Source: an uncultured Bacteroidales bacterium (lineage in GTDB: Bacteria; Bacteroidota; Bacteroidia; Bacteroidales; VadinHA17). From it: a DNA stretch of 64,000 bases. The notes beneath the pieces were generated by a model. It saw only the letters and a program-made list of their open reading frames with translations. It did no database searches and had not been told where the DNA came from. Position 1 is the stretch's first letter. Every line of letters starts with the position of its first letter. Shown here one piece after another: positions 6,516 through 62,871 of this stretch. A program made the position numbers and the translations under genes. The stretch covers positions 133,640-197,639 of the forward strand of contig CAVXUP010000002.1 of assembly GCA_963765005.1 (NCBI GenBank), given 5' to 3'.

Positions 6516-6600
6516 TGTAAAGATGCATCGCGTTTCTACGACTGAATATATGAACCATGGAGCCACATTGTAAAAACGCGATGCATGGCGTTTCTGACAA
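6516..6600. repeat. REP-like palindromic elements (family A), one partial and one near-complete copy
   Basis: CTGTAAAGATGCATCGCGTTTCTACG and CCACATTGTAAAAACGCGATGCATGGCGTTTCTGAC lie between convergent genes. Same family as at 28319-28466 and 62781-62871. Confidence 0.65.
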
Positions 6601-26956: not shown

Positions 26957-28307
<1,351 letters not shown>

Positions 28308-28318
28308 CATCTATTCAG

Positions 28319-28466
28319 TTGTAGAAACGCCATGCATGGCGTTTCTACAATGTGGTATATAGACGCCATGCAGGGTATTGTAAAAACGCCATGCATGGCG
28401 TTTTTACAATGTGGCACGATGATACATATGTTCGGTCGTATAAACGCCATGCATGGCGTTTTTACA
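28319..28466. repeat. Cluster of three or four REP-like palindromic elements (family A)
   Basis: Perfect 32-nt palindrome at 28319-28350 (TTGTAGAAACGCCATGCATGGCGTTTCTACAA). Perfect 34-nt palindrome at 28377-28410. Near-perfect copy at 28438-28465. Degenerate half-copy near 28359-28376. Confidence 0.85.
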
Positions 28467-28575
28467 ACTGCATCCTGTGTTCATTCCCGACGTTATTAAC
28501 AATTATTGTTAACAGCTGTTCACATCGGGTGCATAACAACGGCTCAATTCATTAGGATTTTACCGGTAACCAGTG

Positions 28576-28583
28576 TAATTTTG
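28576..28583 (+). promoter_or_regulatory. Candidate -7 promoter box (TAATTTTG) for the downstream ORF-free unit
   Basis: Exact TAnnTTTG match, with a T-rich stretch (GATTTTA) about 20 nt upstream. Confidence 0.35.
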
Positions 28584-28589
28584 TTTCAT

Positions 28590-29080
28590 CAGGTGAGCGA
28601 TAAAAGACTGCTCAAAAGATGTGGAGACAGAAGATGTTTCTTAAGTGAAGCGGAAGATGTTTCGGTCAGACCCTCGGGACTGCGCATCAAGAGAGCCGAA
28701 GCCTGAACGAAACTGACCAGGCGTCAGCGATGTTCAGAAAATCGACGAAAACCAGAAATGTTCTTTCAGAGATTGAGTCACAGGGCTTCAGAAAATGAAG
28801 GGTTTCGACCCCGGGTTTACTGAAACTGTTTTCAGATCCTTCGGGAAATGTCGACAGAGCCTGAAAGACACTTCGTCCCGGAATCCCGACTTGTCGGGAG
28901 AAAGGACAGCCGGATGGTAGAGCTGTAACAGGCCTTACCGGAAAGCCAAGGGTTGCAGAATGGGATCTTGTATTCAGCGAAGCAGCCGGTCAGAATAACA
29001 GTAATCTGACATCTGACGCAACTTCGGTTGTTGACGATGGATGGGAACTACTCCTAGCGAATAGTTCCCATTATTGTTTT
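28590..29080 (+). ncRNA. Candidate large structured non-coding RNA of unrecognised class (5' end approximate)
   Basis: No ORF of 60 aa or more in any frame over 28707-29152. Visibly more G+C-rich than other spacers. Many local hairpins, including UUCG loops. Ends in a 10-bp-stem intrinsic terminator. The downstream gene has its own promoter box. Confidence 0.45.
29041..29080 (+). terminator. Rho-independent terminator
   Basis: ATGGGAACTA (29041-29050) pairs perfectly with TAGTTCCCAT (29062-29071), with an 11-nt loop, followed by TATTGTTTT. Confidence 0.8.
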
Positions 29081-29137
29081 ATACATATCCTCTTCCTCAA
29101 TTTATTTCCGCTTTTACAACTCTTCCATCCTTATTCA

Positions 29138-29145
29138 ATATATTT
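29138..29145 (+). promoter_or_regulatory. Candidate -7 promoter box (TATATTTG) for the UbiD-like gene
   Basis: TAnnTTTG match 21 nt upstream of ATG 29166. Confidence 0.4.
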
Positions 29146-29165
29146 GCTGCTGTTAATCCTTACAA

Positions 29166-31067
29166 ATGCCATATTCAGGTCTTTTCGATTTTATAGCAGG
29201 TCTGGAGAGTATAAATGAACTCCAGCGAATAAAAGTTTTTGCCGATCCTGTTCTCGAGATCACGGAGATAACCGACAGGGTAACAAAAGCAGGTGGAAAA
29301 GCGCTTTTATTTGAAAATACCGGTACGCAATTTCCTCTTCTTATCAATGCCTTTGGCTCAGAAAAGCGAATGTCGGCAGCAATAGGCCGAAACAACCTTG
29401 ATGAGGCCGGGGCAGAAATAGAAGCTGTTTTCAATAATCTCTCTGCCAATCAGGGTAGTCTGCTGAAGAAATTAAGTTCTGTTCCCGGTTTTATCAGGCT
29501 TGCAGGATATATACCTGCAAGGCTCAGGCGAAAAGGAAAATGCCAGGAGGTAGTGCACAATGTCCCTGATCTCTCAATATTCCCGGTTTTAAAATGCTGG
29601 CCGCATGATGGCGGACGCTTTGTGACCCTTCCGATGGTTCATACTATCCATCCCGTGACAGGAAAGCCGAATACGGGCATGTACAGGATGCAGATCCTCG
29701 ACAGCAGCACTACAGCAATGCACTGGCAGCGTCATAAAACAGGAGCCAGCCATTATGATGCCTGGAAAAAAGCAGGTAAGATAATGCCTGTGACAGTTGC
29801 CCTGGGCGGCGATCCTGTATATACATACTCAGCCACGGCTCCTCTGCCGGAAAATATAAGCGAATATATCCTTGCAGGATTTCTGCGAAAGAAAAAGGTG
29901 AAACTGGTAAAGTGTCTTACAAATGACCTTTATGTGCCTGAAGATGCTGACATCGTGATAGAAGGGTATGTTGATCCTGCTGAAGAGCTGGTGTGGGAAG
30001 GCCCCTTTGGAGATCATACCGGTTTCTATTCTCTTGCCGACTGGTATCCTAAATTCCATGTTACCTGCATCACACATTCTAAAAATGCAGTATACCCGGC
30101 AACAATAGTAGGTGTGCCTCCACAGGAAGATGCCTGGCTCGCAAAAGCAACAGAAAAAATTTTTCTGGCACCGGTAAAAGTGGCCCTGCTTCCTGAAGTT
30201 GAAGATTTTCACATGCCCGACGCAGGTATTGCACATAATCTTGTTATTGTGAAGATCCGTAAAAGCTATCCGGGTCAGGGAATGAAAGTACTCAGTTCTC
30301 TCTTCGGGGCAGGACAGATGATGTTCTCAAAATATATTGCAGTGATAAGCAGTGATGTCGATATCAGAAACTACAGGGCGCTCATTTCACATGTTTTTGA
30401 AAATCTCGATATCAGGAAGGACTTCCTCTTCAGCAGGGGACCCCTTGATGTGCTTGACCATGCATCCGATGCTTTTTCATTTGGCGGGAAACTGGGAATT
30501 GATGCTACAATAAAACATCCCGAAGAACTGGCAGGAAGAGCGGAAATACCTGCCGGTACGAAGACTTCAATCAAAGATTTTCTGGAGAGCTTTATTGACA
30601 ATACACTTATTAAAAGCTATTGCATAACTCTTTTTGAGGAGAAAATACCGATTTTGATCGTGACTGTCGATCAGGCAGGTAATGAAAATGCTATTAGCAG
30701 CGTTAAAGAACACTTCAGAAAGAATGACCTGACCGGGAGGTTCAGTGTTATCGTGGCTGTTGATAGTACGGTTGATCCCTGTGACTTTTATACTGTGGCA
30801 TGGCAGTGCCTTGGAAACAGTGATCCTCAGAGGGACCATGAGTATCTCTCGCCTGCGTCCATTTTTATTGATTGTACAGCAAAAGCCTACCGGAAAGGAG
30901 GCTTTACCAGAAAATGGCCAAACGTGGTTTGTTCAGGCCTCGAGACAATATCTGCCATTGACGCAAAATGGGAATCTCTGAATATCGGGCCATACCTGAG
31001 TTCACCATCCTTAAAGATCAATGATTTAATCCGTCCTGGCAAAGATGAGATTTTCACAGCAAAATGA
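29166..31067 (+). CDS. UbiD-family (prenylated-FMN-dependent) decarboxylase, menaquinone/ubiquinone-biosynthesis type, long form (633 aa)
   Basis: N-terminal ELQRIKVFADPVLEITEITDRV, GMYRMQ and HWQRHKTGA motifs typical of the UbiD family, plus a C-terminal extension. Confidence 0.85.
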   Translation: MPYSGLFDFIAGLESINELQRIKVFADPVLEITEITDRVTKAGGKALLFENTGTQFPLLINAFGSEKRMSAAIGRNNLDEAGAEIEAVFNNLSANQGSLLKKLSSVPGFIRLAGYIPARLRRKGKCQEVVHNVPDLSIFPVLKCWPHDGGRFVTLPMVHTIHPVTGKPNTGMYRMQILDSSTTAMHWQRHKTGASHYDAWKKAGKIMPVTVALGGDPVYTYSATAPLPENISEYILAGFLRKKKVKLVKCLTNDLYVPEDADIVIEGYVDPAEELVWEGPFGDHTGFYSLADWYPKFHVTCITHSKNAVYPATIVGVPPQEDAWLAKATEKIFLAPVKVALLPEVEDFHMPDAGIAHNLVIVKIRKSYPGQGMKVLSSLFGAGQMMFSKYIAVISSDVDIRNYRALISHVFENLDIRKDFLFSRGPLDVLDHASDAFSFGGKLGIDATIKHPEELAGRAEIPAGTKTSIKDFLESFIDNTLIKSYCITLFEEKIPILIVTVDQAGNENAISSVKEHFRKNDLTGRFSVIVAVDSTVDPCDFYTVAWQCLGNSDPQRDHEYLSPASIFIDCTAKAYRKGGFTRKWPNVVCSGLETISAIDAKWESLNIGPYLSSPSLKINDLIRPGKDEIFTAK

Positions 31068-32098
31068 ATCAACTTCTCCTGACATACAATTATTTGCCAT
31101 TACAATCTCTTTCGCCTGGTTTTGAGAAATCCATTTCATACGGATTGTTGAAACTATTGATTCTTCCGCAGGGCTTGTTATTTTATGCAGCACTTGCAGT
31201 GCTGTTGATTCTAATTGTTATTGCTGTTTCAGTAACTCAATTGAAAAGGATAAGGAAAGTGCTCAGGGAAAAGGAAGAGGCTCTTAAATGTATTGGCATA
31301 CAAAAGATTGAGCTTGAATTCAGGGAAAAAGGCATTACAGACAGCCTTATTTATGCTAAGAGGATTCAGGAGGCTTTGCTGCCTTCAGAATTATATTTCA
31401 GGATACATTTTCAGGAGTCATTTATTCTTTTCAAACCAAAAGATATTGTAAGCGGCGACTTCTACTGGATAGGCGAAAAAAACGGCAGGGTCTTCATTGT
31501 AGCGGCCGATTGCACAGGTCATGGAGTCCCTGGAGCTTTACTGTCGATTATAGGCAGGGAGATTATCGAAAAGACTATTAATGAGGAATATATTGCTGCT
31601 CCTTCTGAAGTTCTTGCAGTACTTGACAAAACCCTGGAAAGGACATTCAGCAGAGAAAAAAATGTTGGCACTGTGATAAGAGATGGAATGGATCTGGGTT
31701 TGTGCGTTGTTGACAAGAGGAGGAGATCTCTTGTTTTTTCAGGAGCATTCTTTCCCTTGTATCTTATCAGGGATAACAATCTTACCGAGATTAAAGGCGA
31801 CAAGATAGTCCTGGGGATGAATCCTGAGGGAAGGAAATATGCTGATAATGAAATTGAGCTGCAGGATGATGATATTTTCTACCTCTTTTCCGATGGATAT
31901 GTTGATCAGTTTGGCGGGCTGGACAATAAAAAATATATGTACAGAAGGTTCAGATATCTTTTAATGACAATCCATGGTTTTCCTGCCGAAACACAGAAGT
32001 CCATCCTTAACGAAAGTATTATGACCTGGCAGGGTAAAAATGTTCAGGTTGATGATATTATGGTTATCGGCTTTAAACCTCTTGCAGGAAAAACTTAA
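31064..32098 (+). CDS. Membrane-anchored PP2C/SpoIIE-family serine phosphatase
   Basis: One or two N-terminal TM segments, then AKRIQEALLP, SGDFYW, DCTGHGVPGALLS, SDGYVDQ and DDIMVIG motifs. ATGA overlap with the upstream gene. Confidence 0.85.
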   Translation: MNQLLLTYNYLPLQSLSPGFEKSISYGLLKLLILPQGLLFYAALAVLLILIVIAVSVTQLKRIRKVLREKEEALKCIGIQKIELEFREKGITDSLIYAKRIQEALLPSELYFRIHFQESFILFKPKDIVSGDFYWIGEKNGRVFIVAADCTGHGVPGALLSIIGREIIEKTINEEYIAAPSEVLAVLDKTLERTFSREKNVGTVIRDGMDLGLCVVDKRRRSLVFSGAFFPLYLIRDNNLTEIKGDKIVLGMNPEGRKYADNEIELQDDDIFYLFSDGYVDQFGGLDNKKYMYRRFRYLLMTIHGFPAETQKSILNESIMTWQGKNVQVDDIMVIGFKPLAGKT

Positions 32099-62780: not shown

Positions 62781-62871
62781 CTTGTATAAACGCGATGCAT
62801 CGCGTTTTTACAAGATGCACGATGTTTCTACAAGATGTTCGACGTTTCTCGATGCATCGCGTTTCTGCATC
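62781..62871. repeat. REP-like palindromic elements (family A), one near-complete copy plus degenerate copies
   Basis: CTTGTATAAACGCGATGCATCGCGTTTTTACAAG at 62781-62814, followed by ATGCACGATGTTTCTACAAG and ...CGTTTCTCGATGCATCGCGTTTCTGC. Confidence 0.75.

Follow-up and report, generated by a model that had tools for sequence, protein, structure and literature searches.

Large, intricately folded bacterial RNAs with no known function are rare. The short list comprises OLE, GOLLD, ROOL, raiA and a few others, each of which has turned out to hold unexpected biology, such as ribonucleoproteins tied to stress adaptation or RNA-only cages. The OLE RNA (ornate, large, extremophilic) of Bacillota is about 600 nt long, and its known role is as the RNA of an RNP (PMC9723947, PMC12054373). 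ROOL and GOLLD RNAs have been shown to form RNA-only homo-oligomeric cages (PMC12286853), whilst the raiA motif RNA, found in Bacillota and Actinomycetota, is a very abundant structured RNA of about 200 nt with its own promoter and terminator (PMC10861870, PMC12968392). 6S RNA, including the Bacteroidales-1 type, is a rod of about 180 nt with a central bubble, which works by protein sequestration.

Here we describe a spacer between eno and a UbiD-family gene in an uncultured Bacteroidales bacterium, examined within a window of 64,000 nt (contig CAVXUP010000002.1, positions 133,640 to 197,639). It almost certainly holds an independent gene for a heavily folded non-coding RNA of roughly 490 nt, although the start site, 3' end and abundance of the transcript are inferred rather than mapped. 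The family matches no model in Rfam 15 and is probably an undescribed class, insofar as searches of the literature by topic, by the conserved RNA strings and by the upstream palindrome found no description in the sources covered. Such loci are hence currently annotated as empty spacers.

An independent unit with conserved boundaries

The original prediction of a promoter-to-terminator unit of about 0.5 kb, encoding a large structured RNA of no known class and separate from the UbiD gene, was supported by each element that could be tested. The sequence features were where it had placed them, save that the box preceding the UbiD gene is one base away from the proposed 29138. The G+C content of the unit is 48.1%, against 42.4% for the window and 23.5% and 26.1% for the two other spacers with which it had been compared.

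Table 1. Features of the RNA locus, in window coordinates
Feature	Position	Strand	Composition
Upstream DNA element, candidate operator or upstream regulatory site of the RNA promoter	28493-28537	.	Inverted pair of DnaA-box-like 9-mers (20-mer at 28493-28512), here the variant TTATTAACA..TGTTAACAG, family consensus GTTATYAACAATTGTTRATAAC; further box-like 9-mers TGTTCACAT (28517-25) and GTGCATAAC (28529-37)
-7 promoter box	28576-28583	+	TAATTTTG, Bacteroidetes TAnnTTTG type; predicted start near A28588
RNA gene	28588-29080	+	About 493 nt, from predicted start to terminator U-run
5' core domain	28589-28696	+	5' strands of P1 (28589-98) and P2 (28606-09); invariant strand GAGCGAUAAAAG (28595-28606); helices 28610-13/28693-96, 28620-23/28683-86, 28624-30/28657-63, 28636-40/28647-51 (conserved loop CUUAANUGA) and 28667-72/28677-82
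Central variable domain	28698-28874	+	Closed by GAAG 28698-701/CUUC 28871-74; hairpins 28703-08/28732-37, 28800-03/28808-11 and 28837-39/28844-46; conserved stretch GAAAUGUUCUUUCAG
3' core domain	28875-29039	+	Helices 28875-78/28904-07, 28916-23/28932-39 and 28951-56/28982-87; hairpin 28885-89/28894-98; 3' strands of P2 (28988-91) and P1 (29001-09); near-invariant strand CAGAAUAACAGUAA (28991-29004); hairpin 29010-13/29036-39 with 29018-22/29027-31
Intrinsic terminator	29040-29080	+	Stem 29040-53/29059-72, then UAUUGUUUU; includes a perfect 10-bp stem 29041-50/29062-71, followed by TATTGTTTT
Box of the UbiD-family gene	29139-29146		TATATTTG

A TAnnTT(T/A)(G/A) box begins 11-14 nt before profile position 2 in 113 of 116 family loci, whatever the upstream gene. 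The terminator is likewise conserved in position; its stem core, GGGAAC/GUUCCC, is unusually conserved in sequence, although it covaries in divergent members (for example GGGGAAAC/GUUUCCCC and AGGAAC/GUUCCU), and the tail is T-rich on the + strand only. The fixed position of the box bears on whether the RNA is instead a structured 3' UTR of eno, or is processed from eno read-through. In several loci the eno stop codon abuts the upstream palindrome, leaving no separate spacer, and in the window eno is followed by REP-like palindromes with no T-run. However, conservation starts at the promoter rather than at the eno stop codon, and in several lineages the upstream gene is divergent, on the opposite strand, making this explanation very unlikely.

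A long cis-acting leader, such as a riboswitch or attenuator, controlling the UbiD-family (menaquinone pathway) gene through the conserved terminator appears equally improbable. In about 90 loci the RNA does lie directly upstream of this gene on the same strand, ending a median of 111 nt before it. However, in 60 of 82 loci the UbiD gene has its own exact TAnnTTTG box between the terminator and the start codon, mostly 23-30 nt before the latter, and no conserved alternative pairing to the terminator stem was seen, the one candidate (28959-68 with 29063-72) lying in a variable hairpin. In about 30 loci the downstream gene differs or is convergent. Draconibacterium and other Prolixibacteraceae carry the RNA between a fucosidase-like gene, named by eye from its sequence, and a convergent argS, whilst other lineages carry it next to a divergent protease-like gene of about 1,077 aa. 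The UbiD loci of these lineages lack the RNA, and the closest outgroups have eno and UbiD adjacent without it.

Conservation and consensus structure

Searches with Rfam 15 (4227 covariance models) gave no hits above gathering thresholds in the window. At E ≤ 10 on 28300-29200, the only hits were spurious miRNA-like matches to the REP-like palindromes at 28312-28478, with nothing falling in 28576-29080, and none were found at the RNA in 8 + 17 divergent loci. About 30 of 80 UbiD-anchored loci keep 500-600 nt at 72-81% nucleotide identity, where the flanking UbiD protein is only 60-70% identical. A scan with a 24-nt motif gave 120 genome hits, of which 119 are true members, and 120 metagenome hits, of which 119 are true; 41 more members were found through the upstream palindrome plus a covariance model of the 103-position 3' module. 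Hence homologues occur in at least 160 Bacteroidia genome bins and at least 119 metagenome contigs, from peat, sediments, digesters and activated sludge. The carriers retrieved are almost all metagenome-assembled genomes, though the family occurs in genera with cultured representatives. Most loci cover profile positions 2-498, but lengths range from 282 to 901 nt: the 5' and 3' core of about 280 nt flanks a central domain that is absent in variants of about 280-400 nt and expanded in those of 600-900 nt, whereas the 5' core is present in every size variant.

Folding of the single sequence was only weakly better than shuffled controls (z -2.5 on the + strand and -4.1 on the - strand, so that the minus strand even scored better); therefore the evidence that the structure is more than chance comes from comparative data. 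On a sequence-only MAFFT alignment, 54 of 119 predicted pairs show compensatory changes. In this alignment 96.5% of cells are paired, against 28-44% when partners are slid, and 54 pairs and 185 cells carry double changes, against 15-21 pairs and 20-43 cells in the slid controls; no shuffle out of 500 reached any of the measures. The top mutual-information pairs in 196 sequences are Watson-Crick covariations of the predicted helices. These include pairs 28-108, 36-100, 42-75, 45-72, 83-96, 84-95 and 86-93 in the 5' core, the closing pair 114-288 of the central domain, and the long-range pairs 6-424 (AU 163/GC 29) and 22-407 (AU 92/GC 65/GU 32). Several core helices, such as 28875-78/28904-07, never vary in the close set and so rest on few changes. 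In the 3' module all 21 pairs show compensatory change in 68 diverse sequences, although that covariance-model alignment was fitted to its structure. The resulting architecture is closed and multi-domain, with P1 and P2 pairing the 5' end with the 3' domain and bringing together two near-invariant A-rich strands, GAGCGAUAAAAG and CAnAAUAACAGUAA.

Only the detailed hairpin assignments of the original prediction needed correction. Of six proposed, three are supported by covariation among homologues: UCC-UUCG-GGA (28837-46), CCCGA-CUUG-UCGGG (28885-98) and GCAAC-UUCG-GUUGU (29018-31). The proposed enclosing CAGG/CCUG helix is supported with a 2-nt shift (GGGC 28783-86/GCCU 28859-62). The other three are not the conserved pairing. 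In place of CUUCA/UGAAG, CAG (28789-91) pairs with CUG (28820-22), in a helix that by eye may extend to UUCAG/CUGAA and that encloses a GGGU-UUCG-ACCC hairpin at 28800-11; GUUUC/GAAAC is likewise not the conserved pairing; and the bases of GUCAG/CUGAC (28989-29010) instead form the long-range helices P1 and P2.

An excess of G·U over A·C combinations, 309 to 30, fixes the + strand. Neither a decayed gene nor a small protein is at all likely to account for the conservation, although no database-wide BLASTX-type search was made. No open reading frame of 60 aa or more lies over 28707-29152; a 66-aa ORF ends at 28706, the longest internal ORF is 41 aa (28795-28920), and the median longest ORF across the family is 48 aa. 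Period-3 power is 0.19x the mean, against 102x in a UbiD coding control, invariant blocks are conserved at all three codon positions, indels are not multiples of three, and the internal ORFs have no Pfam hits.

The upstream element and indirect evidence of expression

With up to three mismatches, the palindromic 20-mer starts 93-99 nt (in one case 106 nt) upstream of the conserved RNA 5' end in 93 of the roughly 115 loci that have upstream DNA, and occurs nowhere else in 883 kb of those loci. Mirrored positions vary independently, with frequent C/A combinations, so this is a DNA-protein site and not an RNA hairpin. The DnaA-box reading rests on resemblance to TTATNCACA-type boxes and on the same 20-mer lying directly upstream of dnaA in 13 non-Bacteroidota genomes; however, a partial Lutibacter dnaA upstream region shows no such boxes, and the window copy is an imperfect variant. 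We infer that transcription of the RNA is modulated by a protein bound to the array at about -100 to -55, possibly DnaA, though control by DnaA itself remains doubtful. In Flavobacteriia the palindrome precedes an AT-rich, ORF-free unit of about 400-500 nt, but this is matched by neither the 3'-module model nor Rfam; homology is undecided.

This array raises the alternative that the conservation reflects a DNA-level element, such as a replication origin or a DnaA-titrating or DnaA-reactivating locus. This is very unlikely: the compensatory changes and the 10:1 excess of G·U over A·C are RNA- and strand-specific, the body is G+C-rich, only one exact box lies in the spacer, and one contig carries three tandem copies. 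In addition, there is no GC-skew switch in the window, and the ribosomal-protein operon is transcribed toward the site, which is the wrong orientation for an origin. The boxes may still be a DNA-level site attached to the RNA gene. It is also conceivable, but unlikely, that this is a class-wide, abundant RNA of Bacteroidia (Bacteroidales in the broad sense, including Prolixibacteraceae, Marinilabiliaceae and Lentimicrobiaceae) with a promoter hard-wired to an array of DnaA boxes, the production of which reports or feeds back on the chromosome-replication initiator, with the invariant A-rich internal loop as its active or binding centre; its standing would then be comparable to that of 6S or OLE RNA.

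Evidence for expression is indirect. Sense fragments of the RNA are fused at contig ends to PNPase, Hsp20, ClpB-like and other mRNAs, and to viral contigs, suggesting an abundant transcript captured in RNA-derived chimeric assemblies. Five IMG/VR contigs with the motif at first looked like viral carriage, but three encode eukaryote-type RdRps, one carries dicistrovirus-like capsid domains and one, by eye, a levivirus-like coat, each fused to partial fragments. As the same kind of fragment is fused to unrelated bacterial mRNAs, these too were considered chimeric. The RNA component of a mobile or defence element, such as a nuclease guide RNA, retron RNA, intron fragment or phage RNA, is therefore a remote possibility, notwithstanding the contig with three tandem copies: no phage or plasmid match was found, and the gene is single-copy and syntenic within lineages, with no recurrent neighbouring nuclease, reverse transcriptase or integrase.

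Comparison with described RNAs

The RNA is inferred to act in trans as an abundant, stable molecule, the invariant internal loop and conserved hairpin loops of which bind a cellular partner, with GAGCGAUAAAAG and AAUAACAGUAA as the proposed binding centre. Whilst no partner has been identified and no conserved neighbouring gene constrains the function, a protein is the most probable candidate, making this an RNP scaffold or sequestering RNA in the manner of 6S, OLE or raiA RNAs, a mode of action about as likely as not. A base-pairing sRNA or a cis-regulator seems less likely, and a ribozyme or an RNA-only homo-oligomer is improbable.

OLE RNA is similar in being a large, multi-domain bacterial RNA with blocks of near-invariant nucleotides between covarying helices, found in mostly anaerobic environmental bacteria and apparently abundant. 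However, the two occur in different phyla and show no sequence or structure match at E ≤ 10, and no oapA/B/C-like genes lie beside the present RNA, which has its own promoter box and terminator and variable neighbours, whereas OLE appears to sit in a conserved operon. ROOL and GOLLD RNAs are also ornate, with expandable peripheral domains, but are often found in phages or prophages, whilst this RNA is chromosomal and syntenic; there is no evidence here for self-assembly, although it is not excluded. Neither these, raiA, which is shorter and has an unrelated consensus, nor HEARO (omega RNA) gave a covariance model match, and no recurrent nuclease gene was found in the flanks.

In 6S RNA, as here, the two ends pair and conserved unpaired strands face each other in an internal loop, and its protein sequestration is the kind of mechanism favoured for this RNA; however, the consensus structure is multi-branched, with 26 helices, rather than an extended rod, and neither 6S nor Bacteroidales-1 was hit. 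RNase P RNA and tmRNA are comparable in size, in the closing helix formed by the 5' and 3' regions, in having a conserved core with lineage-specific expansion domains, and in being single-copy genes with their own promoter and terminator. Neither family was hit at E ≤ 10, and the superficial resemblance of GAAAGGAC to CR-I of RNase P pairs locally with GUCC at 28875-78. ARAGORN found no tmRNA in the window, and the RNA lacks a tRNA-like end and a tag ORF, ending instead in an intrinsic terminator. Unlike these universal housekeeping RNAs, it is restricted to part of one class.

The eno-UbiD spacer and conservation of the RNA

The spacer between eno and the 633 aa UbiD-family gene, which has the Pfam domains UbiD_N, UbiD and UbiD_C, is 858 nt long and is composed of three REP-like palindromes, a stretch of about 100 nt that is conserved in relatives, a TAnnTTTG box, and about 490 nt without a reading frame, ending in a perfect hairpin followed by a T-run. 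The G+C content here is 48.1%, against 42.4% for the window and 23-35% for other spacers. The coordinates of the original prediction, which had described a promoter-to-terminator unit encoding a large structured ncRNA, were found to be right, except that the UbiD promoter box lies one base further along than the 29138 it had given. The REP-like elements are three tandem copies of a perfect palindrome (TTGTAnAAACGCCATGCATGGCGTTTnTACAA), related copies of which lie elsewhere in the window. The gene following UbiD overlaps its stop codon (ATGA) and encodes a 344 aa protein with a SpoIIE/PP2C-type phosphatase domain; its pairing with UbiD is conserved in most related loci.

Coordinates of features in the window
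Feature	Position	Strand
Related copy of the REP-like palindrome	6574-6593	
eno	27030-28307	+
Three REP-like palindromes	28319-28468	
Imperfect variant of the upstream 20-mer palindrome	28493-28512	
Palindrome plus two further box-like 9-mers	28493-28537	
TAnnTTTG (-7) box of the RNA	28576-28583	
5' end, pairing with 29001-29009	28589-28598	+
Segment pairing with 28988-28991	28606-28609	+
Perfect hairpin followed by a T-run	29040-29080	+
UbiD promoter box	29139	
UbiD-family gene	29166-31067	+
Gene with SpoIIE/PP2C-type phosphatase domain	31064-32098	
Related copy of the REP-like palindrome	62788-62807	

Comparison with Rfam 15 gave no hit at the gathering thresholds anywhere in the window, and nothing in 28576-29080 even with E ≤ 10; the REP-like palindromes produced only spurious miRNA-like matches below the gathering scores. 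ARAGORN found no tRNA or tmRNA. Folding of the single sequence does not discriminate, with z-scores of -2.5 on the + strand and -4.1 on the - strand.

In order to assess conservation, eighty loci were retrieved using the UbiD protein. BLASTN showed that 500-600 nt just upstream of the gene are kept at 72-81% nucleotide identity in about 30 of these, although the protein is only 60-70% identical. A profile built from 28 sequences found full-length copies in 28 loci and one copy cut by a contig end. A 24 nt motif from the most conserved strand was then scanned against one genome per species and against metagenomes, with 119 of the 120 metagenome hits being true. Scanning for the palindrome found upstream of the RNA, and searching with a covariance model of the 3' module, added 41 more divergent members, including Lentimicrobium, Marinilabiliaceae and Tangfeifania. 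All carriers are Bacteroidia, whilst Flavobacteriia, Chitinophaga and outgroup UbiD loci gave no match. Lengths range from 282 to 901 nt; the core corresponds to profile positions 2-110 plus 316-498, with the central domain missing in short forms and expanded in long ones. One genome contig (L413, 836-3022 on the - strand) carries three tandem full-length copies of the RNA, and one metagenome contig (L220) has a partial copy of the 3' domain upstream of a full copy (303-496 and 647-1203).

Predicted structure, strand and genomic context

RNAalifold, applied to the sequence-only MAFFT alignment, predicts 119 pairs in 26 helices, 54 of which pairs have compensatory changes. Of the alignment cells, 96.5% form a standard pair, compared to 28-44% when partners are slid by 1-3 columns; similarly, 54 pairs and 185 cells have changes on both sides, against 15-21 pairs and 20-43 cells in the slid controls. 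No shuffle out of 500 reached any observed measure. In an independent profile alignment of 196 sequences, the pairs with the highest mutual information are Watson-Crick covariations of these helices, including the long-range pairs 6-424, 22-407, 28-108 and 114-288. The two long-range pairings of the 5' region close the molecule, and set GAGCGAUAAAAG opposite CAGAAUAACAGUAA. In the 3' module all 21 pairs, including the terminator stem, covary across 68 diverse sequences, although this alignment is fitted to the model. Three of the six hairpins in the original prediction, as well as the helix proposed to enclose the first three of them, are supported, whilst the other three hairpins are replaced by other pairings.

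G·U cells outnumber A·C cells 309 to 30, hence the + strand is the RNA, and the T-run follows the hairpin only on this strand. Column entropy has no period-3 signal (0.19x mean power, against 102x for UbiD coding DNA from the same loci), and the internal open reading frames have no Pfam match.

The -7 box begins 11-14 nt before the conserved 5' end in 113 of 116 loci, and an exact TAnnTTTG box, mostly 23-30 nt before the UbiD start codon, is present in 60 of 82 loci. The order rplQ-eno-RNA-UbiD-SpoIIE-like is conserved in one clade; however, its nearest outgroups have eno and UbiD adjacent without the RNA. In about 30 loci the RNA is found elsewhere: in Draconibacterium and other Prolixibacteraceae it lies between a fucosidase-like gene and a convergent argS, whilst in others it lies beside a divergent protease-like gene of about 1,077 aa. 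No protein gene recurs next to it, and there is no phage or plasmid match.

Indirect evidence of expression and the upstream element

Five IMG/VR contigs and at least seven metagenome contigs carry sense fragments of the RNA, mostly profile positions about 311-458 and in one case 54-447. Most of these sit at a contig end, and each is joined to unrelated sequence: either bacterial mRNAs (PNPase, Hsp20, a ClpB-like ATPase, a radical-SAM protein and an ABC permease) or RNA-virus sequence (three contigs with RdRP_3 polymerases, one with a levivirus-like coat as judged by eye, and one with Dicistro_VP4/Rhv capsid domains). A bacterial ncRNA fused to a dicistrovirus-like capsid gene can only be an artefact of RNA-derived libraries or assemblies, and we infer from this that the RNA is abundant in those RNA pools. 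None of the fragments runs into the terminator hairpin, and four stop at profile positions 454-458, just before it, which hints at a processed 3' end near 29039.

A near-invariant palindrome (GTTATYAACAATTGTTRATAAC) lies at a fixed distance upstream of the RNA promoter. The 20-mer TTATYAACAATTGTTRATAA, allowing up to 3 mismatches, starts 93-99 nt (106 nt in one case) before the RNA 5' end in 93 of the roughly 115 loci with upstream DNA, and occurs nowhere else in 883 kb of those loci. It is followed by TGTTTATAT-like and GTKNAYAA-like boxes, the whole array lying about 55-100 nt upstream of the RNA start. Mirrored positions vary independently, so it is a DNA site. Of 120 hits to this element, 65 precede this RNA, 13, in Spirochaetota, Geobacter and Veillonellales among others, lie directly upstream of dnaA, where the 20-mer is identical, and about 12 are in Flavobacteriia, downstream of rplS. 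In the Flavobacteriia loci L337, L355, L370, L376, L381 and L388, the palindrome is followed by a -7 box, an ORF-free stretch of about 400-500 nt and a conserved GCCATRT...AYATGGC terminator before icd. This unit shares a short ACGTTCTTT-like motif with the central domain of the Bacteroidales RNA, yet is matched neither by Rfam nor by the 3' module model, and so may be an analogous or very distant RNA gene. In one Bacteroidetes MAG, what looks by eye like a tRNA gene lies about 60 nt downstream of the palindrome, hinting that the element may serve promoters of other stable RNAs too.

The 9-mers differ from the TTATNCACA DnaA box at one position. Therefore the array is read as DnaA-box-like, the palindrome resembling an inverted pair of such boxes, and we propose, without proof, that DnaA or a protein with similar specificity controls the promoter. 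An alternative, that this site is an origin of replication, is unlikely, as there is no skew switch, the ribosomal protein operon is transcribed toward the site and the body is G+C-rich.

Comparison with known RNA classes

The evidence establishes a stand-alone, structured and probably abundant ncRNA gene, of a family absent from Rfam and from the literature that was searched, although a description outside that literature is possible. Whilst its biological role is unknown, the most likely mode of action is that of a trans-acting, protein-binding structural RNA, a reading we hold to be about as likely as not, with catalysis and RNA-only assembly being the minority alternatives. Three features, namely the architecture of a conserved core with an expandable periphery, the invariant A-rich internal loop formed by long-range pairing and the conserved hairpin loops, resemble RNP RNAs and ribozymes more than base-pairing sRNAs or riboswitches.
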